From positions 68,255 to 132,254 of the forward strand of contig PEZY01000012.1 of NCBI GenBank assembly GCA_002773855.1: a DNA stretch of 64,000 nt, given 5' to 3'. Source of the DNA: Candidatus Buchananbacteria bacterium CG10_big_fil_rev_8_21_14_0_10_33_19 (GTDB lineage Bacteria; Patescibacteriota; Patescibacteriia; 2-01-FULL-39-33). The position numbers and the translations under genes were made by a program. The first letter of the stretch is position 1, and each line of letters opens with the position of its first letter. The notes below the pieces were generated by a model. It saw nothing but the letters and a program-made list of their open reading frames with translations, was not told where the DNA came from and did not search any database. Shown here in pieces: positions 2 to 53,858 of the stretch.

Positions 2-1015
2 AAAGTTCCAACTTCGTTTGATGATTTTGCTTATGATAAATATTTAGCTCGTTATAGTATATATTCTGTTTGTGGCTTCGCGGATATTAATATAATTAAT
101 TATTCTAGTTATAATTTTTTATCTTTAATTAAATCTAAATTAGAAATTAGTTTAAATAAATCTATTGTCGAGCCCCAAGTGTCTATTATTCAGGCTATGC
201 TCTTGGGTAACCGGCGAAATATTCCTGCTAGTATATTGGCTGATATTTCTACGGTTGGGCTTAGTCATATTATTGCTATATCTGGTATGCATATTGCTAT
301 TATTGTAATGATCGTGGTGTATAGTTTGATAGCTTTGGGTATTATTCGGCAAAAAGCTTTTTGGGTGACCTTAGTTATTATTACTTTTTATGTCGCTTTG
401 ATTGGTTATCCAGCTTCGGCGGTTAGAGGTGCAGTGATGGCAATGTTAGTTTTGTATGCTAATAAAATTGGTCGTTTGAATTATTCGATTAACGCTATCT
501 TATTAGCGGCTAGTGCTATGCTTTTAATTAACCCTAGATTACTGTTAGCCGATGTGGGTTTTCAATTATCTTTTATGGCTGTCTTGGGTATAATATATTT
601 ATCACCAATTTTAAAATATAAATTTAGGCAATTGCCAGAGTTAGGTCAGTTAAAAAATATGGTAGTCGTAACTTTGTCGGCGCAAATTATGACCTTGCCA
701 CTAATTGTTTATTATTTTAATTATTTTTCATTATTGTCGATTGTTTCTAATATTTTGGTTTTACCAGTACTACCATTAATAATGATCTGGAGTATGATAG
801 TTGGAGTGGTCGGAATTTTTGCTCCGATGGTGGCAAATTTTTTTGGCTATGGTAGTTATTTTTTGATTAGTTATGTTTTGCTAGTTACTAAGTTGGTTAG
901 TAGAGCTTCAATATTTAAAATTGAATTATATTTTGATCAATTTTATTTTGGGGCTTTAGCTTATTTGGTAATTTTTATAGTGATTAGGAGATATAGATAT
1001 TTAATTAATTATTGA
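2..1015 (+). CDS. comEC: ComEC/Rec2-like competence membrane protein, 5' partial (reading frame open to the window edge)
   Basis: Frame is open from nt 2 with no stop, so the gene continues upstream. Multi-TM region with ComEC competence-domain-like motifs (GLSHIIAISGMHIAII). The listed ORF 179..1015 is only the part after an internal GTG. Confidence 0.55.
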   Translation, partial: KVPTSFDDFAYDKYLARYSIYSVCGFADINIINYSSYNFLSLIKSKLEISLNKSIVEPQVSIIQAMLLGNRRNIPASILADISTVGLSHIIAISGMHIAIIVMIVVYSLIALGIIRQKAFWVTLVIITFYVALIGYPASAVRGAVMAMLVLYANKIGRLNYSINAILLAASAMLLINPRLLLADVGFQLSFMAVLGIIYLSPILKYKFRQLPELGQLKNMVVVTLSAQIMTLPLIVYYFNYFSLLSIVSNILVLPVLPLIMIWSMIVGVVGIFAPMVANFFGYGSYFLISYVLLVTKLVSRASIFKIELYFDQFYFGALAYLVIFIVIRRYRYLINY

Positions 1016-1088: not shown

Positions 1089-2153
1089 ATGAAAGTGCTT
1101 ACCAAAGTTTTTTATCTGATTATTTTTATTAGTTTATTCTCTGGATGTCCTAGTGTAGAGAAAATAAAGTCTACTCAATCTAACGGTCAGCCGTTTAATG
1201 AAATTTGGAATGCTATTTATGATTTACAAAATCAAGTTAATAATATTCAGTTAATCCCTGGTCCAGTTGGTCCGCAAGGTGAAGTAGGCCCCAAGGGCGA
1301 TACTGGTGATAGAGGTGAACAAGGTCATAGAGGTGAAGTTGGACCACAAGGTGAGAGCGGTCAAAAAGGCGATACTGGCGATATCGGCCCACAAGGCAAT
1401 GATGGTTTGTCTAATTGGGATGAGGATAGGATATCTAGTTTAGAATCATCAGTTGCTGAATTAAGAGATATTGTTATGCCTTCTTTTGAGTCACCAGCAG
1501 TTGATAGTAATGTAGTTAATTTTGATGCTACTCAAGGACAGTATCTTGGTATTGATAACACTAATCAGTCTGGGTTGGATATTGTTGGTAGCTTAACGAT
1601 TGAGTGTTGGATTAAACTTAGGTCGTTGCCTAATAATGGCAACTATGCTATTTGTTCTAAATACATTGGTGACCCCAATAACAGTCGATCGTGGATTTTT
1701 TATTATTCTCATAGTTCTAACGGCTATCAATTAGGGATGATAATTTCTAGTAATGGCCATGATAATAATGATGTTCAAGTTAGATCATGGGATTATACTT
1801 TGGCAGTTGATCAATGGTATCATGTAGCCACGGTATTTAATCATTCGCTAGGTACTTATGAGATATTTGTAAATGGTGATAGTATTGGTAAATCATTTGG
1901 TAGTATCCATAGTATTTATAGTGGTACAGCACCATTTTTTGTTGGTAGATTATGGAATCATGGTTGGTATTTTGATGGATCGATTGATGATTTGCGAATC
2001 TGGAGTACTGCTCGCACCCAAAATGAGATTATTGGTAAAATGAATACAGAATTAACTAGTCAAGAGCCGTATTTAAATGCTTATTGGAAATTTAATGGTA
2101 ATACTTTGGACTCTTCAATTAATGGTAATAATCTAATTGGTTATAATTTTTAA
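1089..2153 (+). CDS. Lipoprotein with collagen-like G-X-Y triple-helix repeats and a C-terminal LamG/concanavalin-like domain
   Basis: Signal peptide with lipobox LFSGC. About 16 consecutive G-X-Y triplets ([46 protein letters not shown]). C-terminal [11 protein letters not shown]-type motifs typical of Laminin_G_3 jellyroll domains. Confidence 0.6.
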
Positions 2154-2204: not shown

Positions 2205-3029
2205 TTATTCTATCGTTCTAATTTTAGTTGAAAAGTCTGGATCATCAGCGTATTTGAGAGCTCGATCATTAATCAAAAACATATCCATCGCTTCTTTCAA
2301 AGTTAAATCTGTATCAATTAGTCCTAAATCAAATGCTAGTTCAGCAGCATAGCCTGGCAGTAATACTTTATAGCTAAATGGAATTTTTTTTGGTGAAATA
2401 GTATTAATATGTCGGACTATGTTTGTGGTACAAGTATTGGTTAGAGTGTTGTAGAATTCAGGCTGGTCTTTAAGTTTATTTAGTCTGTTTATCATATTTA
2501 AAAATAAAGCCTGTTTTTTTTCTTTGGTTGTTTTGGCTGGGTAGATATAAACTTTGTCATTTCGATAGTTTGATCTTAATTTCACTACATCTTTTTCGTC
2601 AGCTACGATGTACATTATTTCGTATTGATTGAATAGCCCCTTGATAATTGAATATTCTTCATCTTTTTCATTTCTGGTTTCAACTGATATAGATACGTAT
2701 TCATTATCTTCAAACCCAAAGCTCAAAAAAGTATGAGCCAATCCAGAGAATTTGGAAAATGGCTCTAAAATAAAATCCACTGATTGTAATTTATTTAAAT
2801 CAAATTTTTTATCATAATAGTTAATATCATAATCATCGTTGCTACGGTAATTAAAATTTCTAATATTATAAATGGTTATTTCATTGCCGTTAATATCGGC
2901 ATAAGCTAGTATTTCTTTTGGTGTTTTCCAATCACGATCGTTTGATGGTTTGAACAAAAATAAAAAAGCAATATAAACTATTATTGCTAATAGTAAACTT
3001 AATAATATTAATTTGAATACTTTTTTCAT
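2205..3029 (-). CDS. Hypothetical membrane-anchored protein (N-terminal TM helix, large exported domain)
   Basis: 274-aa ORF with N-terminal hydrophobic anchor and KPSNDRDW motif. A distant resemblance to DUF4105-type periplasmic domains is an unverified impression. Confidence 0.4.
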   Translation of the reverse strand: MKKVFKLILLSLLLAIIVYIAFLFLFKPSNDRDWKTPKEILAYADINGNEITIYNIRNFNYRSNDDYDINYYDKKFDLNKLQSVDFILEPFSKFSGLAHTFLSFGFEDNEYVSISVETRNEKDEEYSIIKGLFNQYEIMYIVADEKDVVKLRSNYRNDKVYIYPAKTTKEKKQALFLNMINRLNKLKDQPEFYNTLTNTCTTNIVRHINTISPKKIPFSYKVLLPGYAAELAFDLGLIDTDLTLKEAMDMFLINDRALKYADDPDFSTKIRTIE

Positions 3030-3115: not shown

Positions 3116-3970
3116 ATGAATAAAAAAATTGTTATCTTAATATTATTTGTATTTTTTTCTGCTCTAACCCTTTTAAATAATAATGGTCAGATTAAAGGCG
3201 CCACTGATAATAAATTAGCAGTTTATTTTCTAGACATTGGTCAAGGTGATGCTACGCTTATTCGCACTCCGGCTGGCGACGACATTTTAATTGATGGTGG
3301 ACCTAACAATACCTTGCTCCAAAAGTTGGGGGAGTATTTACCATTTTATGACCATAAAATTGAAACGATAATCTTAACACATCCCGATAGCGATCATGTC
3401 ACTGGTTTGGTAGAAGTAATCAAGCGCTATGAAGTAGACAGAGTTTTGATGACTAGAGTTTATTCGGATTCAACTAGTTACTTGTCTTTTTTAGCTGAAG
3501 TAGAAAAAAATAATATTACTGTTGAGGTAATTGATCAGCCAGAAGTGGTGGATTTTGGTGGTGGCGTGACGTTTGATATTATTTATCCGTTAGAAAATTT
3601 AGTCGGGCAAAAAGTAGATAGTACCAACAATACTTCGATTACTGGTAAATTAATTTATGCTAGTACCACGGTTATGTTGACTGGTGATTTAGAAAATGAA
3701 GAGGAGTTAGCGGCTAGACATTTAGATTTGAAATCTGACATTTATCACGTAGGACACCATGGTTCGAGCAACGCTAATGATCTAAGTTTTGTGTCGGCTG
3801 TTGAGCCACGTTATGCTGTTATTTCGGTGGGGGCAAATAATCATTACGGTCATCCTAACTATCGAACACTTAAGAATTTAGAAAAAGTAGCAGCTGAAGT
3901 TTTTAGAACCGATCAGTTGGGTGATATAATATTTGCCAGTGATGGCAGTAGTTGGGAGATTGTGAAGTAA
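3116..3970 (+). CDS. Secreted MBL-fold metallo-hydrolase resembling the ComEC C-terminal beta-lactamase-like domain
   Basis: Signal peptide. Motifs LDIGQGDATLI, ILTHPDSDHVTGL and HVGHHGSSNAN are typical of metallo-beta-lactamase fold / ComEC C-terminal nuclease domains. Confidence 0.6.
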   Translation: MNKKIVILILFVFFSALTLLNNNGQIKGATDNKLAVYFLDIGQGDATLIRTPAGDDILIDGGPNNTLLQKLGEYLPFYDHKIETIILTHPDSDHVTGLVEVIKRYEVDRVLMTRVYSDSTSYLSFLAEVEKNNITVEVIDQPEVVDFGGGVTFDIIYPLENLVGQKVDSTNNTSITGKLIYASTTVMLTGDLENEEELAARHLDLKSDIYHVGHHGSSNANDLSFVSAVEPRYAVISVGANNHYGHPNYRTLKNLEKVAAEVFRTDQLGDIIFASDGSSWEIVK

Positions 3971-4066: not shown

Positions 4067-4918
4067 ATGAAGTCCAGGCAAAAAATAATGGTCAGTTGTT
4101 TTGTTGGCGGATTTTTTGGCACACTAGTGGCTATTGTTTCTGGTGTTGGTTTTTGGTGGCTAGGATTGCTGGTCGGGTTTTCGACGGGCTATTTGAGCTA
4201 TGAATTTCATCAAGTGTTAGCAGCTATACCGATTTTCTGGAAAAGTACAGTAAACGTGTTCTCAAAGACAGTCTGGCCCAAGTTGGTTAGATTATACAAA
4301 TATGATGAGCCGAGGCCATTTTTATTAGTAGGCTTTAGCTCGTTTGTGTTTATAACTACTTATTTATTTAGGTTGTCACCTGATTTAATATTGGACAACC
4401 TTGTGACTATACTTGGTTTATCACTATTCTTAGCAGTATTTATAGCCATCAGTGTATGTTTTATTGCCTGTGCAGGTGCTGACATTGTTGAAAAAGTATA
4501 TTGGGAAGGGACTATGATTGTTGAATCTAGTTTACTTAAAAGTAAAAAGGTGGATTTAACATATGCCCGCACCATTCGTTGGTTCCTAGAGGGATTAATA
4601 GCATTGCCGCTGCTAGTTGTATTTTTTGTGATAGCTAGTTTTCTATTATTGTGTTCACCATTAATTTTTTTGGTTTTGGCTTTAATCATGATTAGCTGGG
4701 AAATTATAAAATACATTTATTCAGATGAACGATTGACTTGTGGTTTTAGTGGTGCTATTGGTGTGTTACTGGCCATATCATATTTATTTTATAATCCCAA
4801 TTTATCTTGGGTAGAAGCGGTTATTTTAATGGTGTCAATTGGCGTAATTAGCTGTACTATTGGTGTGATTAGTTGGAAAGTTTTTCAATCTAAAAAAACA
4901 AATATTTGTCAGGCTTAA
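4067..4918 (+). CDS. Hypothetical polytopic membrane protein
   Basis: 283-aa ORF with multiple hydrophobic helices; no recognisable catalytic motif. Confidence 0.4.
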   Translation: MKSRQKIMVSCFVGGFFGTLVAIVSGVGFWWLGLLVGFSTGYLSYEFHQVLAAIPIFWKSTVNVFSKTVWPKLVRLYKYDEPRPFLLVGFSSFVFITTYLFRLSPDLILDNLVTILGLSLFLAVFIAISVCFIACAGADIVEKVYWEGTMIVESSLLKSKKVDLTYARTIRWFLEGLIALPLLVVFFVIASFLLLCSPLIFLVLALIMISWEIIKYIYSDERLTCGFSGAIGVLLAISYLFYNPNLSWVEAVILMVSIGVISCTIGVISWKVFQSKKTNICQA

Positions 4919-7160: not shown

Positions 7161-7586
7161 ATGCCAACAATTAATCAATTATTAAGAAAAAGTCGGACTA
7201 GTATAAAGGCTAAGTCAAAGACTCCTGATTTGCAGATTACTTTGGACAGTTTACATCGCAAGAGAAAAATTGTTTCTAAAGGTAACCAGTTCAAAAGAGG
7301 TGTTTGTCTACAAGTTAGAACTACTACTCCTAAAAAACCAAACTCAGCTCTTAGAAAAATTGCTCGGGTGAGACTTTCTAATGGCCAAGAAGTTACTGCT
7401 TACATTCCAGGTGTGGGTCACAACTTACAAGAACACTCTATCGTGTTAGTTCGCGGTGGAAGAGTTAAAGATTTACCTGGTGTTAGATACCATGTTGTTC
7501 GTGGTGTTTACGATTCTGCCGGCGTTTCAGCTAGAAAACGTGGTCGAAGCAAATATGGCGCTAAGAAAGAAAAGGCAGCCAAATAA
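7161..7586 (+). CDS. rpsL: 30S ribosomal protein S12 (C-terminal basic extension)
   Basis: [10 protein letters not shown] start; KKPNSALRK and [11 protein letters not shown] motifs. The ORF-track N-terminus (7092) is an upstream extension without homology. Confidence 0.9.
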
Positions 7587-21846: not shown

Positions 21847-22203
21847 ATGAAAAAGTCACAGAAAATAAAAAATGAGGCTAGAGCAAGAAGACAAAGAAGA
21901 GTCCGGGCTAAAGTGTCTGGTACTGCTACTTGTCCAAGGCTTTCAATTTATCGAAGTTTAAACCATGTTTACGCTCAGCTTATTGATGATCAAAACGGCA
22001 AAACTATTGTTAGTGCTAGAGATTCAGAAGTTAAAGATGTCAAAACTAAGATGGAAAAGGCTACTGCTGTAGGTAAATTAATTGCTGAAAAGGCAGCTAC
22101 TAAGAAAATTGAAAAAGCTGTTTTTGATAGAGGCATGTTTAAGTATCATGGCCGCGTAAAGGCTGTGGCTGACGGTGCTAGAGAAGCCGGATTAACAATA
22201 TAA
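21847..22203 (+). CDS. rplR: 50S ribosomal protein L18
   Basis: [18 protein letters not shown]...[14 protein letters not shown]. Confidence 0.9.
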
Positions 22204-22297
22204 ATAATTTAAGTAAGTAGGGAGTAGTAAGTAGTAAGTGTGGATTATAAAAATAATTCTACAATCTACCACCTACTGCCTACCACCTAATAATAAT
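22204..22297 (+). repeat. Bipartite intergenic element, instance d
   Basis: taaataatttaagtaagtagggagtagtaagtagtaagtgtgg attataaaaataatt ctacaatctaccacctactgcctaccacctaataataatATG. Confidence 0.5.
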
Positions 22298-22888
22298 ATG
22301 GCAGAAAAAGATACCAACAAAAAAAGAATAAGACCAAAGAAAGAGCAACCTGAATTTGATCAGCAGATTGTTGATTTAGCTCGTGTTACTAGAGTTATGG
22401 CCGGCGGAAAAAGAATGCGTTTTAGAGCTTGTGTTGTAATTGGTGATAAAAAGGGCAGAGTTGGTGTTGGTCTAGCCAAAGGTAAAGATGTGTCACTAGC
22501 TGTATCAAAAGCTGTTGCTAAAGCTGAAAAGAATTTAGTTAAAGTTAATATTGTTGACGGCACTATTCCCCACGAAATTTACATTAAATTGGGTGCGGCC
22601 AAGATATTACTTAAGCCAGCGCCAGAAGGTACTGGTATTATTTCTGGTGGTGCAGTTCGAATTGTTTTAGAATTGGCTGGCATCAAGAACGTAGTTTCTA
22701 AGATTATGGGTACTAATAACAAGGTTAATAATGTTGATGCTACTATTAAAGCTTTGACTATGCTAAGAAAAGTTGATAGAAAGGCTAAAAAAGATAATGC
22801 TAAGGAAGTTATCAAACCAGAAGTTGTAAAAGCTGAAGAAACTAAAGCAGATAAAAAAGATATTAGTCAAAAAGAAAATAAAAAATAA
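22298..22888 (+). CDS. rpsE: 30S ribosomal protein S5 with Lys/Glu-rich C-terminal extension
   Basis: Start at ATG 22298 (MAEKDTNKK...). RVTRVMAGGKRMRFRACVVIGDKKGRVGVGLAKGKDV core. The upstream part of ORF-track ORF 22238 is the intergenic element. Confidence 0.9.
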   Translation: MAEKDTNKKRIRPKKEQPEFDQQIVDLARVTRVMAGGKRMRFRACVVIGDKKGRVGVGLAKGKDVSLAVSKAVAKAEKNLVKVNIVDGTIPHEIYIKLGAAKILLKPAPEGTGIISGGAVRIVLELAGIKNVVSKIMGTNNKVNNVDATIKALTMLRKVDRKAKKDNAKEVIKPEVVKAEETKADKKDISQKENKK

Positions 22889-22958
22889 TTAGTTAGATAG
22901 TAGTGAGTAGGAATTTAAAAAAAATTCTACAACCTACAACCTACAACCTAATAATAAT
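22889..22958 (+). repeat. Bipartite intergenic element, instance e (in the position where L30 is normally encoded)
   Basis: taattagttagatagtagtgagtagg aatttaaaaaaaatt ctacaacctacaacctacaacctaataataatATG. Confidence 0.5.
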
Positions 22959-23402
22959 ATGAATTTAACTTTATCAAATTTAAAACCAGCTAAAGGTTCT
23001 ACTAAAAGAAGAAAGAGAGTTGGTCGTGGTGGTAAACGTGGTACCTACTCAGGTAAGGGTTTGAAAGGCCAAAAAGCTCGAAGCGGTGTTTCTGGTTTAA
23101 AAGCCTTGGGTTTCAAGCAAACTTTACAGAGAACTCCAAAATTGCGTGGCTTTAAAAGCTTGAAAGCTAAAATGGCCATTGTTAATTTATCTGATTTAGA
23201 TAAGCTATTTAAAGATGGCGATAAAATTGCCCCAAAAGATCTAATTAAAGCCGGTTTAATTGAATCAGCTAAGAGTGGTGTAAAAGTTTTAGGCTTTGGT
23301 CAATTATCTAAAAAACTAGAGGTGACTGTTAATGCTTTCTCAAACTCAGCCAAAGAAGCCATCGAAAAAGCTGGTGGTAAAGCAGAAATTATTGTAAAAT
23401 AG
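22959..23402 (+). CDS. rplO: 50S ribosomal protein L15
   Basis: MNLTLSNLKPAKGSTKRRKRVGRGGKRGTYSGKG. Confidence 0.95.
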   Translation: MNLTLSNLKPAKGSTKRRKRVGRGGKRGTYSGKGLKGQKARSGVSGLKALGFKQTLQRTPKLRGFKSLKAKMAIVNLSDLDKLFKDGDKIAPKDLIKAGLIESAKSGVKVLGFGQLSKKLEVTVNAFSNSAKEAIEKAGGKAEIIVK

Positions 23403-23480
23403 ATTTTGCTCTCAGATTTAAAAAATAAATTTGATTTAAGTTTTAAATCTGCCTTATCTATAAACTAAACTATCTAAAAT

Positions 23481-24755
23481 ATGTGGAAAAAAATCATCCA
23501 AATTTGGAAGATTCGTGACCTGAGAAACAGCATTCTGTTTGTTATGGGAATGTTAATTATTTTTAGAATAGCTGCTCATATTCCTATTCCTGGAGTTGAT
23601 AGTGTGGCTCTTAAAAGTCTTTTTGATAGCAATCAATTGCTTGGATTAATGAATGTATTTTCCGGTGGTAGTATGGAAAATTTTTCTATAGTATTATTGG
23701 GCATTGCTCCATATATTACTGCCTCTATTATTTTTCAGTTACTGACTATGGTAGTGCCTAAGTTAGAAGAACTTTCTAAAGAGGGTGAATATGGTCGACA
23801 AAAAATTAATCAGTGGACTAGATGGCTAACAGTGCCACTAGCTTTTTTTCAATCATTTGCGACCATTAGTTTACTGCGACAATCAGCGGTTAACGTTTTG
23901 CCAAATTATAGTTCTTGGGAAGTATTTACCGCTATGATAACAATTACTGCTGGTACTGTGTTTTTGATGTGGATTGGTGAACTTATATCTGAAAAGCATA
24001 TTGGTAATGGTATTTCACTATTGATTTTTGCTGGTATCGTATCTGGTTTACCAGGTAGCGTTGGCAGTACTTTGTACACTTATGATCAGGCTCAAATTAT
24101 TAATATGGTTATTTTTGCTTTGATTTCTCTAGTGACTATTGTTGGGGTGGTTATTATTACTGAAGGTCAAAGAAATATTCCAGTTTCTTATGCTCGAAAA
24201 GTAAGAGGTAATAAAGTATATGGTGGAGTGGATACTCATTTGCCACTTCGAGTAAATCAAGCTGGGGTGATTCCAATTATTTTTGCAATTGCGATAATTA
24301 TGTTCCCGCCACTGATCGCTCAATTATTTATTCGAGTGAAAACAGTTTGGATTGCCAATGCCGCTGAATGGGTAATTCAAATTTTCCAAAATCAATTGTT
24401 CTACGGCATCTCTTATTTTGTGATGGTTGTAGCCTTTACTTATTTTTATACCGCGGTTATTTTCCACCCAGATCAAATTGCCGAAAATTTACAAAAACAA
24501 GGTGGCTTTGTACCGGGTATTAGACCAGGTAAAAATACGGCGGCTTATTTACAAAAAATCGTGACGCGTATTGTGTTTACTGGCGCTTTATTTTTAGGTA
24601 TTATTGCAGTTTTACCATTGATTACAGCGCAGATTACTAATACTCAATCATTAGTCGTGGGTGGTACTAGTCTACTGATTGTAGTATCTGTAGTGATTGA
24701 AATGTTTGGTCAAATTAATTCTCAGTTATCAATGAGAGATTACGAAGAAATATAA
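23481..24755 (+). CDS. secY: Preprotein translocase subunit SecY
   Basis: 10-TM SecY sequence (RIAAHIPIPGVD..., GQRNIPVSYARK). Confidence 0.95.
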   Translation: MWKKIIQIWKIRDLRNSILFVMGMLIIFRIAAHIPIPGVDSVALKSLFDSNQLLGLMNVFSGGSMENFSIVLLGIAPYITASIIFQLLTMVVPKLEELSKEGEYGRQKINQWTRWLTVPLAFFQSFATISLLRQSAVNVLPNYSSWEVFTAMITITAGTVFLMWIGELISEKHIGNGISLLIFAGIVSGLPGSVGSTLYTYDQAQIINMVIFALISLVTIVGVVIITEGQRNIPVSYARKVRGNKVYGGVDTHLPLRVNQAGVIPIIFAIAIIMFPPLIAQLFIRVKTVWIANAAEWVIQIFQNQLFYGISYFVMVVAFTYFYTAVIFHPDQIAENLQKQGGFVPGIRPGKNTAAYLQKIVTRIVFTGALFLGIIAVLPLITAQITNTQSLVVGGTSLLIVVSVVIEMFGQINSQLSMRDYEEI

Positions 24756-24788
24756 AATTAAGATAAGAGCATTATAACTATTTTAAAA

Positions 24789-24810
24789 ACACGGTTCTTC
24801 CGTGTTTTTA
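24789..24810 (+). terminator. Rho-independent terminator after secY
   Basis: acacgg-ttctt-ccgtgt hairpin followed by TTTT; followed by an extended -10-like tgGTATAAT. Confidence 0.55.
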
Positions 24811-24858
24811 ATTTTTGTGGTATAATAAAGTTATCAATTACTAATCATAAAATAATTT

Positions 24859-25863
24859 ATGAAGAAAAAATTATTTATTTACTCTCTAGTATCTTTTGGA
24901 GCAATTATTGCTTCTTTAGCGCTAATTTCTCAATCTGCTTTAGCTGTTTATACTCCAGCCGAAGGAGATTTAGTTAAACTATCAAATGATTCCGCTATCT
25001 ATTATGTAAACGGTAGTGGTCAAAGAAGGCTTTTTGTTAATGCTCCAACATTTTGGTCTTGGCATAGCGGTACATGGAGTGATCAAAACATTAAAACAAT
25101 CACTCAACCTGATTTTGACGGGTTATCTGCAGGGGAAAACATGGCGATTAGGCCCGGAACAAATTTAATCAAATTCCAAAACAGCGATATTATGTACGCT
25201 GTTACTCCAGGTAATAAATTATGTAAGGCCACGGCTAATTATGGTGATAATTGGCGTGATAGATTAGTTACCATACAAAATAGTTTTGAAAGTAACTATC
25301 TCAATGATGATACTTGTAGAGTAGATGTTGATACTAAATTACCAAATGCTACTATTCTTCAATATAACGGTTCTAACCAAAAGTATTATATTGAAGATGG
25401 CGTTAAAAGACTTTTAACTGATAATGGCTTTAATCTTAATAAATTTCAAGATAAATTTGTGGTTAAAAATGTCCCTCAGTCGATGACCTTCAACAGTGAT
25501 GTCTCACGACCATTAGATGATAAAGAATTTTGGATTAATGATAATATTTTAGATTTAGAAGTAGGCGATTTTTTTTACCAATCATCTGATTCATTTAATA
25601 CCCAAGCTAATTTTATTGTGGAAATAACTCAGGAAAATGATCTAAGTCAAAACATTGGGATTGATTTATACATTGATGGTAGTTTAGTAAAGAGTATTGA
25701 TAGATTAGCTCATAAAGCAGAGCAATATTCGATTATCTGGGATAACCCAACTATTGGTGAACATGTTTGTAAGGTTGTAATCGATAGTAAAGATCAAGTA
25801 GATGAATCTAACGAAAATAATAATACTAAACAGTCTAATTGCATTGTTACCAAAGGGCAATAA
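24859..25863 (+). CDS. Secreted protein, paralog A (shared about 200-aa N-terminal domain, then C-terminal CARDB-like domain)
   Basis: Signal peptide. N-terminal domain about 75 percent identical by eye to the next gene. C-terminus ends ...VCKVVIDSKDQVDESNENNN, like CARDB domains. Confidence 0.55.
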   Translation: MKKKLFIYSLVSFGAIIASLALISQSALAVYTPAEGDLVKLSNDSAIYYVNGSGQRRLFVNAPTFWSWHSGTWSDQNIKTITQPDFDGLSAGENMAIRPGTNLIKFQNSDIMYAVTPGNKLCKATANYGDNWRDRLVTIQNSFESNYLNDDTCRVDVDTKLPNATILQYNGSNQKYYIEDGVKRLLTDNGFNLNKFQDKFVVKNVPQSMTFNSDVSRPLDDKEFWINDNILDLEVGDFFYQSSDSFNTQANFIVEITQENDLSQNIGIDLYIDGSLVKSIDRLAHKAEQYSIIWDNPTIGEHVCKVVIDSKDQVDESNENNNTKQSNCIVTKGQ

Positions 25864-25885
25864 TAAAGATATAAGACTATAATTT

Positions 25886-27136
25886 ATGAAAAAAATATTG
25901 GTCATTGTTATATTATCAATCATTACTTCTTTAGTGCTAATTTCTCAATCTGCTTTAGCTGTTTATGCACCAACTGAAGGTGATTTAGTTAAATTGTCAT
26001 ATGATTCAGCTATTTATTATGTAAATAGTGCTGGCGAAAGACGCTTGTTTGTGAATGCCCCAACTTTTTGGTCTTGGTATAGTGGTTCTTGGAGTGACCA
26101 AAACATTAAAACCATTACCCAGTCCGAATTTGATGGATTGACTGTTGGTAAAAATATGGCAGTGCGACCAGGTACTAATTTGATTAAATTCCAAAATAGT
26201 AATAATTTATACGTCGTAATACCTGGTAATAAATTATGTAAAGCCACTACTGGTTATGGGGATAATTGGCGTGATAGACTAGTGACTATTCAAAATAGTT
26301 TTGAAAATAATTATACTGTTGATATTAATTGTCATGTTGACGCTGGTGATAAGCTACCAGATGGTACGGTTTTTAGAATTAGTAGTCCCGGACAGTTATT
26401 TTATGTGGAAAATGGTAAGGCTAGAATAATTCAAGACACAATTGGTGATGATGCTTTTATTAAAAATCGTTTTCAACATAAGTTTGTAGTCAAAAATGTG
26501 CCACAGTCAATGTTTGAGATAGATATTCAAAATACGGTAGCAAATAAAGAATTTTGGATTGATGATATTGACAATAATTCAGATATTTTTTCTGAAGCCT
26601 ATGGTAGTTTTAGTCTTTATTTACAGTGTTTAAAAAATTATGATAAAACTTGTTTGAGAGATTTGGCAGCTAAAGCGTCACTAGACGAATTTAATACTGA
26701 GTTAGATTCAGTAAATTTTCAACAATTAGCTGATTTTGAATATAGTGTTTTAAATGTTTATGAAAAATCAATGTTCGTTAATAATTGGTTTGATAATCAT
26801 CAATTAATAATGAATGCCGATGTTCAGAAAGACATTGCAGATGATCAGGTTACGTATAAAATGAGAAGTTTAAAATTCATAAAAGAAGATAATAAATGGA
26901 AATTAATTGGAGCTAGTGATATCATTATTGGCTGGTTTACTGATATAGAAGCTCAAGATAGAATTCGTGATACTGATAAAGACGGTTTGACTGATTTTAA
27001 TGAAAGATGTGAATCAGGATTTTCAAATTGTATAAAAACAGATCCACTGGATAGAGATAGTGATGATGATGGTTGGTGGGACGGTATTGAAAAATCTGTT
27101 CAAACTGATCCTAATAATGCTAATAGTAAACCGTAA
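25886..27136 (+). CDS. Secreted protein, paralog B (shared N-terminal domain, then C-terminal thrombospondin type-3-like Ca-binding repeats)
   Basis: Signal peptide; shared domain (FVNAPTFWSW...GNKLCKAT...DNWRDRLVTIQNSFE...FVVKNVPQSM); C-terminal DTDKDGLTDFNE...DPLDRDSDDDGWWDGIE repeats. Confidence 0.55.
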   Translation: MKKILVIVILSIITSLVLISQSALAVYAPTEGDLVKLSYDSAIYYVNSAGERRLFVNAPTFWSWYSGSWSDQNIKTITQSEFDGLTVGKNMAVRPGTNLIKFQNSNNLYVVIPGNKLCKATTGYGDNWRDRLVTIQNSFENNYTVDINCHVDAGDKLPDGTVFRISSPGQLFYVENGKARIIQDTIGDDAFIKNRFQHKFVVKNVPQSMFEIDIQNTVANKEFWIDDIDNNSDIFSEAYGSFSLYLQCLKNYDKTCLRDLAAKASLDEFNTELDSVNFQQLADFEYSVLNVYEKSMFVNNWFDNHQLIMNADVQKDIADDQVTYKMRSLKFIKEDNKWKLIGASDIIIGWFTDIEAQDRIRDTDKDGLTDFNERCESGFSNCIKTDPLDRDSDDDGWWDGIEKSVQTDPNNANSKP

Positions 27137-27150
27137 CAATCTATTCATAA

Positions 27151-27176
27151 AGCTCCAAAATTTGGGGCTTTTTTTA
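27151..27176 (+). terminator. Rho-independent terminator after paralog B
   Basis: agctcc-aaaattt-ggggct followed by TTTTTTT. Confidence 0.5.
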
Positions 27177-27216
27177 TTCTGCAAAATAGGTTAAAATTAA
27201 GCTAAAGCTAGTTATT

Positions 27217-27882
27217 ATGATGAAAAAAAATAGCAAACCATTTGAAATTATTCTGTTTGGCCCACCAGTTTCTGGTAAGGGTACTCAGGCCAAGCTGTTG
27301 GCCACAGTTTTAAATATCCCGCATATTTCGGCTGGTCATTTGTTGCGTTTAGCTGAAGAGGATAAATCAAATCCTTATCACAAACAAATTTCTGACTTAA
27401 TTGATAATGGTCAATTAGTGCCTAGTGAGATTGTTAATCAAATGGTGAAAAAGCGTCTAGCTAAGACCGATTGTGTCAAAGGTTATGTTCTAGATGGCTA
27501 TCCTCGAACATTTGATCAAGTGGCGGTTTTGGAACAGATTGCTGGCATAGATTATGTGTTTTTAATTGATGTTAGTGATAAAATAGTGAAAGCTAGAATT
27601 ACTGGTCGGCGTATTTGTCAGAATAATCATCAGTGGAATTTACAAAGCTCACCACCACGGGTTAGAGGTATTTGTGATATCTGTGGTGGAAAAATTAGCA
27701 TTAGAAAAGATGATAGTTTGGACAAAATAAAAAAGCGATTAAAAATTTATCATGAACATGTTAATCCAATTATCAAATATTATAAAAAGCAAAAAAAGCT
27801 TATTACCATAAATGGTGATCAACATATTGAGGATGTGTTTCAAGATATCGTTAAATATATAATTGGCGAAATTAGAAAATAA
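27217..27882 (+). CDS. adk: Adenylate kinase with zinc-containing lid
   Basis: GPPVSGKGTQA P-loop; lid with CQNNH...CDICGG. Confidence 0.9.
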   Translation: MMKKNSKPFEIILFGPPVSGKGTQAKLLATVLNIPHISAGHLLRLAEEDKSNPYHKQISDLIDNGQLVPSEIVNQMVKKRLAKTDCVKGYVLDGYPRTFDQVAVLEQIAGIDYVFLIDVSDKIVKARITGRRICQNNHQWNLQSSPPRVRGICDICGGKISIRKDDSLDKIKKRLKIYHEHVNPIIKYYKKQKKLITINGDQHIEDVFQDIVKYIIGEIRK

Positions 27883-27890
27883 TAATTATT

Positions 27891-28658
27891 ATGATTAGAT
27901 TAAAAACTAAAGAAGATATCGAAAAATTAAAACGTGGCGGTAAGATTTTATCAGCAGTTTTAGATGAAGTTGAAAAGGTGATTAAACCTGGTATTACCAC
28001 TCAATCACTAACAGATTTAGCTGAAAAAATTATTATAGAGGCTGGTGGCCGACCAAGTTTTAAGGGTTACAAAGCGGCTTGGGCCGATGGTGTTTATCCG
28101 GCAGCTTTGTGTGTGTCCATAAATGAAGAAGTGGTTCATGGCATACCAGCGCCTAATCGAGTGATTAAAGAAGGTGATATTGTGGGTATTGATTGTGGTT
28201 TAGAATATGAAGGCAGATATACTGATATGGCTCGAACTATTATAGTGGGCAAAGTGAAACCCGGTCTAAAAAAATTAGTTTCAGTGACCCAAGAGTCTTT
28301 AATGAAGGGCATAAAACAAGTTAAGCCAGGTAACAAGATTTCCGATATTTCACGGGCGATTGAAGAGCATGTTAAAAAACATGAGTTTTCAGTAGTCAGA
28401 CAATTGGTAGGTCATGGTGTGGGTTTTAGTGCTCATGAAGATCCACAAATTCCTAATTTTGTTGATAGAAGTTTACCAGATGTAGTTTTAAAAGCTGGTA
28501 TGGTTATAGCGATTGAACCAATGGTTAATGTCGGTGGCGCTGAAGTGGATAGTCTAGAAGATGGTTGGACAATTGTCACCCATGATAGTAGTATTTCAGC
28601 TCATTTTGAGCATACCGTAGCGGTAACCGAAGATGGTTATGAGATAATTACCAAATAA
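27891..28658 (+). CDS. map: Type I methionine aminopeptidase
   Basis: Canonical MetAP-I motifs (DIVGIDCG, GHGVG, metal ligands). Confidence 0.9.
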   Translation: MIRLKTKEDIEKLKRGGKILSAVLDEVEKVIKPGITTQSLTDLAEKIIIEAGGRPSFKGYKAAWADGVYPAALCVSINEEVVHGIPAPNRVIKEGDIVGIDCGLEYEGRYTDMARTIIVGKVKPGLKKLVSVTQESLMKGIKQVKPGNKISDISRAIEEHVKKHEFSVVRQLVGHGVGFSAHEDPQIPNFVDRSLPDVVLKAGMVIAIEPMVNVGGAEVDSLEDGWTIVTHDSSISAHFEHTVAVTEDGYEIITK

Positions 28659-28662
28659 ATTT

Positions 28663-29055
28663 ATGAAATTATTAGGCTTGGATTATGGTGAATCTAAAAT
28701 TGGCTTAGCTATTGGTGACATTGAAAGTGGTGTCGCTACTCCTTTTGGGGTGATTAAAAATTTAGGCACTAATAATGCTATAGATGAAATAAAAAAACTT
28801 TGTGATCACGAGCGAATAGAAAAAATTGTTATTGGTGTGCCAGTTAATCCTAATACTTTGGACTCCGAACCAATCAGAAGAGTAGAAGGTTTTATAGCGA
28901 AGTTAAAAGATAAAACTGGCTTAGAAATTATCGGTCGGGATGAAAGATTTTCGACTCAGGAGGCTCAAAAATTAATTAGCAAGAATAAGTCTAAAGATGA
29001 TGATATATCAGCTATGCTTATTTTACAAAATTATTTTGATTCTGCTAGTAAATAA
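28663..29055 (+). CDS. ruvX: Holliday-junction resolvase-like YqgF/RuvX
   Basis: MKLLGLDYGESKIGLAIGD N-terminus. Confidence 0.8.
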   Translation: MKLLGLDYGESKIGLAIGDIESGVATPFGVIKNLGTNNAIDEIKKLCDHERIEKIVIGVPVNPNTLDSEPIRRVEGFIAKLKDKTGLEIIGRDERFSTQEAQKLISKNKSKDDDISAMLILQNYFDSASK

Positions 29056-29622
29056 ATGTCGACCTACGTCACACACGCTGTAGTCTTAAATAAGGATAAT
29101 TACAAAGACTATGATGTAAAATTTATTGTTTACACCCCAGATTATGGCAAGATAGTAATAATTGCTAAGGGTGCTAAAAAAATAACCTCCAAACTTAATT
29201 CTCATTTGGAGTTTTTTTCTGTGACCAAGGTGATGATCGCCAAAGGGGCGGTTGTTAATCGATTAGCGGGTGCTCAGATAGTCGAAGCTCATAAAAATAT
29301 CGTTCGAGATAATCATAAAACCATTATTGCTTTGTATTTTTTGGAGGTAATAAATTTATTAGTTAAATATGATTTTGAGGATGATTTTATTTTTGAAATT
29401 ATAGTGAAGTTTTTAAGTTCAATTAATATTAATCAAAATAGACAAGAGGATTTACTCTTATTAAATAAAAGTTTGTTTGAATTATTAGATCATTTGGGCT
29501 ATCGTCCAGAAATAAAATCCAATAAACAGAAAGGGTTAATAGCTCAGTTTAATAAAGTTATTATGGAAATATCGGATAAAGAGGTAAAAAGTTATGATAT
29601 GTTGTCTAAATTGTTTGATTAG
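29056..29622 (+). CDS. recO: DNA repair protein RecO (short form)
   Basis: N-terminal OB-fold region typical of RecO (HAVVLNKDNYKDYDVKFIVYTPDYGKIVIIAKGAKKITSKL). Confidence 0.6.
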   Translation: MSTYVTHAVVLNKDNYKDYDVKFIVYTPDYGKIVIIAKGAKKITSKLNSHLEFFSVTKVMIAKGAVVNRLAGAQIVEAHKNIVRDNHKTIIALYFLEVINLLVKYDFEDDFIFEIIVKFLSSININQNRQEDLLLLNKSLFELLDHLGYRPEIKSNKQKGLIAQFNKVIMEISDKEVKSYDMLSKLFD

Positions 29623-29672
29623 CAAAAATAAAACTACTCTTGATGAGTAGTTAAAATATTTTTGTATTTTTA

Positions 29673-30344
29673 TTATTTACGGCCGTAATCCTGATAGCTA
29701 GTGCTAATTAGGAAATTACCTCCAAACGTATCGGTTACGGTAATGAGAATATTTTCATCATTGTTGGCGGCATTATAGCAATCACCAATAGCGCTTTCTG
29801 AAAAATCTCCAAAGCCATATTCTGTACAAAATTCTTCAATTATAGTTTTAAGCTGTTCCATAGAACAGCTACCATTAGAATTTAATTGAAAGTTTTCAGT
29901 ATTATAACTGCTTAAAGCCGTTTGTTCGGCATTGTGTTGAAGAACATATAAATCATTTCCATCGTATTTTGGCATGGAAATTGACTCGGTTGACGACTTG
30001 AGTTTATTGGCAATAAAAACTTCCAAACTTTGATGTACCGGTAGTAGATTGGTTAAATATTCTTCAACAGTCTTGGCTTGTTCATCAGTTAATTCATGAA
30101 ACATTAAAGCTATACCGGTAATTTCATTTAAATCACAAATTGGTTTTGGTCGATTGAAAGAATTATCCAATATGTCAAAAGCATGAATAGCCACACCAGT
30201 GCCATAGCCGCGCTCTTTTCGGAGTTTGAGAAGTGACAATAGTGTTCGGATAACTCGATATATTCTAGTATTATGTAAATTTTTACAACCACTTTCCATA
30301 CTATCTTTTAAGTGTTGGATAATATCAAATTTAGTTTCTGTCAT
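29673..30344 (-). CDS. Hypothetical protein (223 aa), downstream gene of a two-gene minus-strand operon
   Basis: No recognisable motifs; Cys-containing C-terminal third; overlaps the upstream gene by 14 nt. Confidence 0.4.
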   Translation of the reverse strand: MTETKFDIIQHLKDSMESGCKNLHNTRIYRVIRTLLSLLKLRKERGYGTGVAIHAFDILDNSFNRPKPICDLNEITGIALMFHELTDEQAKTVEEYLTNLLPVHQSLEVFIANKLKSSTESISMPKYDGNDLYVLQHNAEQTALSSYNTENFQLNSNGSCSMEQLKTIIEEFCTEYGFGDFSESAIGDCYNAANNDENILITVTDTFGGNFLISTSYQDYGRK

Positions 30345-30753
30345 GATTATTGTCTCCGTTGTTTTGTTTTTTTATTAACAAATCCAAAAGACTAAATGGT
30401 TGATAAGAGATACTAATCCAGGTATTAAACGTGTCACTAGAATTTGATTGAGAAATAGTGATCAGCATGGTCTGTCCGAATTTCTCACTTTTGTAACCAG
30501 ATGTGGTTTGGATAAAAGTTTCAAAACCTTTTAGCCAACAAAATCTTTTGATGATTAGTAGGATGGCTTCTAGGTCAATGAATTCAGCGCACCTTATTTC
30601 GAAGCTTTCTTTCCGATCATCACATCGTAGATTTGGTGTGGTCTCCTTTACTTTAAATAATTGGGTGACTATAAATTCTTGTAGTGTTAAGCTTTGAATA
30701 TTATTAAAAACTGTTTCGACAATTGTGTCAGAAACATGTTTCATACAAGACAC
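30331..30753 (-). CDS. Hypothetical protein (140 aa), upstream gene of a two-gene minus-strand operon
   Basis: No recognisable motifs; translationally coupled to the 29673..30344 gene. Confidence 0.4.
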   Translation of the reverse strand: MSCMKHVSDTIVETVFNNIQSLTLQEFIVTQLFKVKETTPNLRCDDRKESFEIRCAEFIDLEAILLIIKRFCWLKGFETFIQTTSGYKSEKFGQTMLITISQSNSSDTFNTWISISYQPFSLLDLLIKKQNNGDNNHDRN

Positions 30754-52748: not shown

Positions 52749-52763
52749 ATAAATATATTTACT

Positions 52764-53858
52764 ATGACAAATAAATTTAAAGACATCTTAAGTGAAATTA
52801 CTGCCTTAGAAAAAGCTACGCCTTTTAATAAAGAAACTATTGGCTGGTCTTGGGCAGAATTAATTAATGCCAAAAATGACTTAAAGAGTATCAGGCTAGC
52901 GGATTTTATAGCCGGTCTTACTGATTATGATTATTTAAAATACCAAGGCGTTGACATTAGGTTGGCTACCGACAACGATTATCAAAAAATTAATAAAGTT
53001 TTGGCTATAATTTATCCAATACTTAGTAAGATTGAATTGATTCAATTACTAGCTTCCAAATCAGACATTGTGATCAATATACCAGATGGTTCTAAAATAG
53101 ATATTTCATACCAAAATCCTATTTTTAATTTTTGGGGTAATGTTTATTTTTTGATTGGTAAGAATTCACAAGTGACAATTACCGATCAACATTTACCGGT
53201 TAAAGATTTTAGTTCAGGCTCGGTTTATTTAATATCTGGTGATAATTCGACAGTTGAATATTTATCAGTAGCTGGTAAAAATTCATATAATTTTAATTTA
53301 CATTCTTATCCTGGAAAATTTTCTAAACATAATGTTTATGCTATAGGCAAAATGACAGAAAAATATTATTATTATAATATGACTTCATACTTGAAGAATG
53401 ATCATTCTGAAAATTATATTTTAGCTTCTTTGAATTTTTTAAATAATTCTAAGTCACTAATTAGATTGCATAATAATCACATTGGTAAAAAAACTACTGG
53501 TGATATTAAATTCAAAGGCATCGGTTGGGACAAATCACAATCTAAAGTAGACGGGATGATTGAAATTGGTAAACGAGCTTATGACACAAATTCGTATTTA
53601 AAAGAAGATATTATTTTAGCTTCTGAAGATAGCTATATTAAAGCTGAGCCTAATTTAGAAATTTTAAACAACGATGTCAAGGCTTCACATGGAGCGACTA
53701 TTGGTTATATGGATCAAAACGCTTTATTTTATTTAATGTCTAGAGGTTTGTCTAAGGTTAAAGCAGAAAAGTTAATCGCTGACGGCTTTTTAAAAAGTTT
53801 GTCTCTTAATGTTATTACTAAAAGTTTAAAAAATACTTTTGAAGATTATTGGTTATAA
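52764..53858 (+). CDS. sufD: Fe-S cluster assembly protein SufD
   Basis: SufB/D-family C-terminal region ([10 protein letters not shown] motif shared with SufB). Confidence 0.75.
   Translation: MTNKFKDILSEITALEKATPFNKETIGWSWAELINAKNDLKSIRLADFIAGLTDYDYLKYQGVDIRLATDNDYQKINKVLAIIYPILSKIELIQLLASKSDIVINIPDGSKIDISYQNPIFNFWGNVYFLIGKNSQVTITDQHLPVKDFSSGSVYLISGDNSTVEYLSVAGKNSYNFNLHSYPGKFSKHNVYAIGKMTEKYYYYNMTSYLKNDHSENYILASLNFLNNSKSLIRLHNNHIGKKTTGDIKFKGIGWDKSQSKVDGMIEIGKRAYDTNSYLKEDIILASEDSYIKAEPNLEILNNDVKASHGATIGYMDQNALFYLMSRGLSKVKAEKLIADGFLKSLSLNVITKSLKNTFEDYWL

Follow-up and report, generated by a model that had tools for sequence, protein, structure and literature searches.

SLH domains of Gram-positive bacteria consist of three tandem repeats of about 55-60 amino acid residues (aa), and are used in two positions, N-terminal in very large surface proteins or C-terminal in secreted enzymes, among them proteases and glycoside hydrolases. 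Tandem modules of about 50-60 aa with beta-beta-beta-alpha topology are found outside the membrane in EccB of the mycobacterial ESX (type VII) secretion systems (PDB 7NPS, 7NP7, 3X3N, 4KK7 and 5CYU). These EccB repeats have been likened to PlyCB, a phage subunit that binds the cell wall (PMC4769845). Here we describe a cassette of two genes, denoted A and B, that lies between secY and adk in a 64-kb stretch of DNA (the window, to which all positions refer) from a groundwater Candidatus Buchananbacteria genome, and whose products share an N-terminal triple-repeat domain that distantly resembles the EccB modules in its predicted fold and recalls the SLH domains in its placement.

On balance, and with modest confidence, we favour the reading that the cassette is an accessory two-gene unit for Sec-exported proteins, which are held at the envelope by a triple-repeat module that binds a wall polymer. 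In this scheme A and B, encoded in the interval that separates the secY terminator from the upstream element of adk, would be exported by Sec. The N-terminal module of about 185 aa, made up of three beta-beta-beta-alpha repeats and stabilised by a disulfide, would bind a cell-wall polymer and keep the protein at the cell surface. The variable C-terminal parts would then be displayed, a CARDB sandwich in A, and a middle region with presumed calcium-binding TSP3-like repeats in B.

Two exported paralogs between secY and adk

According to the open reading frames (ORFs) of the window, secY (23481..24755) is followed by A, B and adk (27217..27882), and then by map, ruvX and recO. The features of the cassette and its flanks are given below (L and P numbers denote the DNA sequences and proteins compared):

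24783..24811, + strand: secY terminator hairpin, 12-bp stem with T-run (terminator scan; fold -14.2 kcal/mol, z=-6.0)
24818..24826, + strand: extended -10-like element TGGTATAAT, putative cassette promoter (read from the sequence)
24859..25863, + strand: gene A, 334 aa (ORF; leader aa 1-29, triple-repeat domain aa 30-213, CARDB aa 232-324)
24946..25497, + strand: triple-repeat (beta-beta-beta-alpha x3) domain of A (AlphaFold2, hhalign and three repeat-profile matches)
25552..25830, + strand: CARDB (Ig-like beta-sandwich) of A (Pfam PF07705)
25886..27136, + strand: gene B, 416 aa (ORF; leader aa 1-25, triple-repeat domain aa 26-210, TSP3-like part aa ~356-413)
25961..26515, + strand: triple-repeat domain of B, third repeat diverged (profile matches; repeat 3 only at an independent E-value, i-E, of 4e-4)
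26951..27124, + strand: TSP3-like, presumed calcium-binding repeats of B (DTDKDGLTDFNE...C...C...DRDSDDDGWWDG) (Pfam below cut-off, local match to CglD)
27149..27171, + strand: cassette terminator hairpin with T-run (terminator scan; fold -11.3 kcal/mol, z=-2.9)
27172..27216, + strand: conserved adk-upstream motif (TTTTTTATTCTGCAAAATAGGTTAAAAT...) (intergenic comparison with L001, L006, L007, L008, L013 and L017)

By inspection, the leaders of both products (MKKK-LFIYSLVSFGAIIASLALI-SQSALA/VY in A, MKK-ILVIVILSIITSLVLI-SQSALA/VY in B) have the basic start, the hydrophobic core and the AxA before the mature protein expected for Sec export and signal peptidase I (SPase I), and no lipobox cysteine was seen in either of them. 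Export is further supported by a covarying cysteine pair in the shared domain (see below). An initial annotation of this DNA, made from the sequence alone, had described two secreted paralogs inserted between secY and adk, with signal peptides on both products and with diverging C-termini, and all of this is borne out: both ORFs and the quoted peptide motifs are present, the leaders are of Sec type (KK, hydrophobic core, ALA/VY), and A carries CARDB where B carries TSP3-like repeats.

In a BLASTP comparison A and B are identical at 143/215 positions (67%, E=5e-103), and a profile of the shared domain matches A at aa 30-213 with E=3e-79 and B with E=2e-74. The identity of about 75% assigned earlier to the N-terminal domain was thus too high, although the homology itself is real. 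The likeness is unevenly distributed: internal repeats 1-2 are 81% identical (96/118), whereas repeat 3 starts with a stretch of 33% identity (13/40). The two genes are adjacent on the same strand, and their N-domains are closer to each other than to most sampled members of the family, as is to be expected for tandem paralogs.

The CARDB assignment of the C-terminus of A, also made earlier, is confirmed by a Pfam match at aa 232-324 that scores 39 bits against a gathering score of 22.7 bits (E=1e-9) and covers model positions 3-99 of 101. For B, the previously claimed TSP3-like calcium-binding repeats hold only as a likeness, since the match to TSP3_bac (PF18884) reaches 13 bits against a cut-off of 25 bits (E=0.095). 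The label TSP3-like is nevertheless reasonable, given the DxDxDG motifs and a local match of this terminus to the TSP3-like section of the CglD model (NCBIfam NF033765; E=2e-5). The C-terminus of B shares with these bacterial TSP3 proteins its Asp-rich repeats of the type DxDxDGxxDxxE, but it has only about two of them, placed inside a conserved module, also seen in P0207 and P0265-P0267, that contains two cysteines and a GWWDG motif. The middle region of B (aa ~230-355) gave no family match. In the public records A (PIS05744.1, UniRef A0A2H0W328) is named 'CARDB domain-containing protein', and B (PIS05745.1, UniRef A0A2H0W315) is 'uncharacterized'.

Predicted fold of the shared domain and comparison with EccB and SLH

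The fold of the domain is predicted with confidence. AlphaFold2, run on the domain of A with an alignment of 51 sequences, gave a model with three beta-beta-beta-alpha units, a predicted local distance difference test (pLDDT) value of 93.5 and a predicted template modelling score (pTM) of 0.88; a model based on an alignment of only 4 sequences was poor (pLDDT 51.6) and was discarded. The three internal repeats were also recognised by profile-profile comparison with hhalign, at probabilities of 86-95%.

When the model was compared with the PDB using Foldseek, the top ten matches were all periplasmic domains of EccB (best E=1e-3, probability 0.93, template modelling score, TM, 0.24-0.26), and EccB chains were the only coherent matches. 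There is no significant sequence likeness: a profile of the single repeat placed EccB1 chains of the PDB at E=0.14-0.25, and Pfam EccB was not matched by A, B or the 51 homologs. Designed beta-propellers, which were the top PDB matches of the repeat profile, were set aside as artefacts of the repeat motif. The domain of Patescibacteria also differs from EccB in having three repeats, no central domain, and no N-terminal transmembrane or cytoplasmic part. The genes next to A and B are secY and adk, the leaders are of the cleavable type, and no ESX genes (eccC, eccD, mycP) were present in the ORFs examined. Furthermore, the domain is mobile, and found at either end of many unrelated secreted proteins, whereas the EccB repeats are not. 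PlyCB, a protein of the streptococcal phage C1, is linked to the domain through EccB.

The resemblance to SLH is one of role only, since the predicted fold of the domain is rich in beta-structure and SLH is helical; SLH (PF00395) was not matched by A or B at E<=1, nor by the 51 homologs at E<=10.

A large family of secreted proteins in Patescibacteria

The domain matched no model of Pfam or NCBIfam, and nothing significant emerged when A, B and profiles of the domain and of the single repeat were compared with the sequences of the PDB. At E<=10 the Pfam matches of 51 homologs were scattered noise only. A word-indexed protein search with the N-domain of A found only 3 relatives, which gave the impression of a rare family. 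This impression was overturned by an exhaustive profile search with HMMER, in which 3,489 cluster representatives (clusters at 50% identity) were found at E<=1e-3, and at least 1,482 at E<=1e-10. All matches with a named source are from Patescibacteria. No relevant literature on the domain in Patescibacteria was found.

Of the 152 best matches, 105 carry the domain in their N-terminal part (102 of these with a hydrophobic leader) and 43 at the extreme C-terminus. The N-terminal class contains many surface proteins of 1,100-1,550 aa. In the C-terminal class the partner domains are extracellular only: Peptidase_S8 (subtilases) is found in 9 of the 43 proteins, and GH9 cellulase, PKD, fn3, Big, PG_binding_1 and Laminin_G_3 also occur. 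Like SLH, the module thus stands N-terminally in giant surface proteins and C-terminally in exoenzymes, a placement that supports a function as an anchor. In addition, a pair of cysteines (residues 122 and 153 of A) is present as a pair in 28 of 51 homologs and absent as a pair in the other 23, with no homolog having a single one; such covariation points to a disulfide and hence to an extracytoplasmic domain.

No further copy of the domain was found in the 64-kb window. A weak match at 52749-53855 is a SufBD protein and was rejected as spurious, and a scan of metagenome DNA with A gave two short, distant loci only. Many of the related proteins (P0012-P0017, P0023, P0025 and P0028) have, between the enzyme part and the triple-repeat domain, tandem cysteine-rich C-x-x-W-x-C-x-x-W-S-x-C repeats of about 40 aa ('CTPNWSCGAWSAC...C..D.N.CGT'), for which the Pfam scans run gave no match.

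Insertion site and transcription signals

SecY of the window is 84-90% identical to that of three Candidatus Buchananbacteria metagenome-assembled genomes (L006, L007 and L008). In these closest genomes adk comes only 110-200 bp after secY, and with most other relatives included the range is 100-200 bp. The survey of this junction therefore agrees with the proposed insertion of the cassette, which the nearest relatives lack. A lineage from Rifle groundwater (L001-L003) has in the same place a single A-type gene, A', that is 77.5% identical to A and accompanied by homologous hairpins. B is lacking in L001, and the corresponding indel is exact, from the ATG of B to the codon before its stop. The genome nearest to L001 is L008, and those nearest to the window are L007 and L006, all three of them without the cassette. 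The distribution of the cassette is thus specific to lineages and patchy, which implies repeated loss or lateral exchange.

Hairpins homologous to the secY terminator are located 3' of secY in L001, L006 and L007, and L001 also has a hairpin homologous to the cassette terminator, with a folding energy of -17 kcal/mol. Where the cassette is missing, in L006 and L007, an A/T-rich TTTTTTTATTCTnnAAAATAnGTTAAAAT motif upstream of adk comes directly after the secY hairpin, and in the window the cassette with its second hairpin is placed exactly between the first hairpin and this motif. The cassette consequently occupies a gap between transcription units. The initial annotation was right in predicting terminators after secY and after the cassette, both of which were picked up by the scan and fold stably, but it overstated the setting when it described the genes as embedded in the most conserved operon of the genome: secY already ends in a terminator hairpin, which is followed by the adk-upstream motif.

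The cassette was also said to have its own promoter. An element of the TGnTATAAT type is indeed present, and L001 has TGTTATAAT at the position equivalent to TGGTATAAT, but the element is a consensus match only and no recognisable -35 was seen with it. No hairpin was found by folding in the 22-bp gap between A and B, and we infer that the two genes are co-transcribed and that the putative promoter is used. A scan of positions 22000-30000 with Rfam found no RNA family. The TTTTTTTATTCTnnAAAATAnGTTAAAAT motif upstream of adk is found across Buchananbacteria (window 27172-27216, L006 ~7320-7350, L007, L008, L013 and L017), and suggests that adk may own a promoter in this clade.

Other Patescibacteria (L010, L014, L017, L018, L029, L030 and L032) carry unrelated genes in the gap between secY and adk or between adk and map. 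By a look at their sequences, one of these genes is amidase_3-like, one has a motif like that of HExxH zinc metalloproteases, and the others have no recognised function. The junctions of this conserved row of genes thus accept insertions repeatedly. On the far side of recO, two adjacent ORFs on the - strand (223 and 140 aa; 29673-30753) have no Pfam matches; aspS follows recO in L001, and L006 and L007 align with the flanks of 29673-30753 but not with the stretch itself, which is probably another small variable island. Upstream of secY, no L30 (rpmD) gene is found between S5 and L15 (22888-22959). Absence of L30 is typical of the Candidate Phyla Radiation.

Related proteins at other loci

In a neighbour-joining tree of the N-domains the proteins of the cassette group as (P0004,(B,(A,A'))), and apart from them stands a clade of proteins of 354-357 aa that also consist of N-domain and CARDB. 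P0004 adjoins a gene for a glycosyltransferase-like product. Four proteins of this second clade (P0155, P0156, P0157 and P0162; 354-356 aa, 'CARDB domain-containing protein') are encoded in other Buchananbacteria, in a conserved slot between the Competence and the metallo-beta-lactamase parts of comEC, and in three of the four contigs (L053, L055, L057 and L066) a T2SSF-like gene precedes them. They resemble A in having a leader, a triple-repeat domain and CARDB, with N-domains that are 45-50% identical, but they differ from it in locus and clade, and their CARDB parts are not aligned with that of A by BLASTP. A protein of B type (P0207), composed of the N-domain and the same C-terminal module, is encoded between rpmG and lexA in another genome, and the module occurs without the N-domain in P0265, P0266 and P0267. 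Proteins of the same architectures are thus found at other loci in relatives. The scattered loci and the reshuffled architectures indicate that the family evolves by domain shuffling and relocation, and not by fast sequence change.

comEC is split in the window as well, into a Competence-domain gene (179..1015) and a metallo-beta-lactamase gene (3116..3970). The slot here holds a 354-aa protein with collagen repeats and Laminin_G_3 (1089..2153) and an Lnb_N protein on the minus strand (2205..3029). Secreted proteins thus seem to be exchangeable at the comEC slot too, as a second such site. Next to it, a 283-aa ORF without Pfam match (4067-4918) separates the metallo-beta-lactamase gene from a response-regulator gene, whereas in the relatives examined the response regulator follows directly.

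Selection, age and variation between assemblies

Nonsynonymous (dN) and synonymous (dS) divergence was estimated by the method of Nei and Gojobori:

A versus B, shared domain: dN 0.23, dS 1.6, dN/dS 0.14
A versus A', shared domain: dN 0.12, dS 1.16, dN/dS 0.10
A versus A', full length: dN 0.12, dS 1.0, dN/dS 0.12
A versus A', CARDB domain: dN 0.08, dS 1.0, dN/dS 0.08
map, window versus L001: dN 0.16, dS 2.0, dN/dS 0.08

The highest windowed value of dN/dS was 0.32. A and B are under ordinary purifying selection, and a dS of about 1.6 between them shows that the duplication is old.

Independent assemblies reproduce the locus closely. L063 is 100% identical to the window, with the order secY-A-B-adk, and L062 is identical except for a scaffold gap of 10 N, which alone accounts for an apparent split of B in that sequence. 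Three further contigs (L068, L069 and L070) are 99.98-100% identical over 5.2 kb. Among the 24 contigs examined that encode the exact A protein, the neighbouring genes are the same in 22, and the gene order is the same in the other two. With intact ORFs, purifying selection and replication in many assemblies, A and B are neither pseudogenes nor assembly artefacts. The pattern is not that of positively selected surface antigens, and the description of the proteins as rapidly diversifying had to be abandoned, since dN/dS for the shared domain (0.10-0.14) is near the value for map and the fetched contigs are nearly or fully identical.

A deviating, loop-like contig of 1,156 bp from another sample (L005, ENA ERZ27293380, 4 mismatches) consists of the 3' end of A, the leader of B, the body of A, and again the 3' end of A and the leader of B. 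It matches the window at 24902-25949 and 25809-25916, and its coding sequence fuses the leader of B to the body of A in a chimera (P0001). The contig repeats with a period of 1,015 bp, exactly as far apart as homologous positions lie in A and B, and the join is located inside a stretch of 31 nt that is identical in the two genes. L005 may represent a tandem duplication of A, an excised circle or a (multi-k) assembly loop.

Discussion

Judged by the way in which SLH domains are used, the triple-repeat module most likely binds a cell-wall polymer or glycan, and the wall so bound could be the cell's own or that of a host. Several observations weigh against the proposed wall anchor and its expression from the cassette. 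The EccB repeats are themselves without proven function, a wall-binding role having been proposed for them via their likeness to PlyCB (PMC4769845); a TM of 0.24-0.26 makes the match to the EccB fold a weak one, and PlyCB is absent among the 50 Foldseek matches listed. The architectural pattern would also suit a carbohydrate-binding module (CBM) that targets a substrate or a host. On the side of transcription, promoter-like sites are not enriched in the region (35 versus 27.9 +/- 4.9 in shuffled sequences), and both the promoter and the terminators were called by their match to a consensus, in a phylum with uncharacterised promoters.

Alternatively, the shared domain could be regarded as an adhesin or CBM for a host surface or a polymeric substrate, and A and B would then serve an episymbiont for attachment instead of being anchored to their own cell. 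PlyCB, to which the EccB repeats are reportedly similar in structure, binds its target cell wall from the outside (PMC4769845). Fusions to GH9 and to S8 proteases, such as the domain shows, are frequent among CBMs, many adhesins contain CARDB and TSP3-like repeats, and presence of the cassette varies among related species. The systematic position of the domain right after the leader of surface proteins of 1,100-1,550 aa is, however, more anchor-like than would be expected of a distal binding tip, its strong conservation (dN/dS 0.10-0.14) contrasts with the usual variability of host-recognition tips, and no host is known for Buchananbacteria. We therefore consider this explanation rather unlikely. 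The tie to an episymbiotic lifestyle that the initial annotation had drawn from the sequence is plausible.

A fast-evolving contingency locus, in which tandem paralogs recombine and diversify and thereby vary the cell surface, would account for the 31-nt identical stretch in the leader region, for the fusion of the B leader to the A body in L005 with a loop unit equal to the A-B repeat spacing, for the ORF-precise absence of B from L001, and for the unrelated C-termini of A and B. It is very improbable in view of the low dN/dS between A and B (0.14) and between A and A' (0.10-0.12), the old duplication (dS ~1.6), and the constancy of the contigs that encode the exact A protein, with the same neighbours in 22 of 24, the same order in the other two, and 99.98-100% identity in the three that were fetched; L005, moreover, is explicable as a multi-k assembly loop through the shared stretch. 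A role in DNA uptake or in a pilus, with A and B as displaced copies of a competence-locus gene, is suggested by the N-domain and CARDB proteins inside the split comEC of four other Buchananbacteria contigs, three of them after a T2SSF-like gene, and is very improbable: the comEC slot of the window is filled by the collagen/LamG and Lnb_N proteins instead, A, B, A' and P0004 form a clade apart from the proteins of that slot, other members of the family are found at unrelated loci, and the partners of the domain are exoenzymes and Ig repeats.

The wall-anchor reading of the cassette leads to a wider and more doubtful proposal, for which we see some chance, namely that the triple-repeat module serves Patescibacteria generally as their anchor at the cell surface, and so corresponds to SLH but with an EccB-repeat-like fold. 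In that case giant S-layer-like proteins, and secreted proteases and glycosidases as well, would be tethered to the wall by this module, one profile would suffice to define much of the anchored surface proteome in an uncultured radiation, and the mycobacterial EccB repeats would be tied to a wall-binding function.

The cassette itself is an ordinary accessory insertion, and its value lies in exposing a large unannotated family of extracellular domains in Patescibacteria. Cell-surface biology is central to the life of these ultrasmall, probably host-dependent bacteria, and a candidate anchor module would aid both the prediction and the purification of their surface proteins. The family could also help in understanding the EccB repeats of type VII secretion systems, which are still unexplained.

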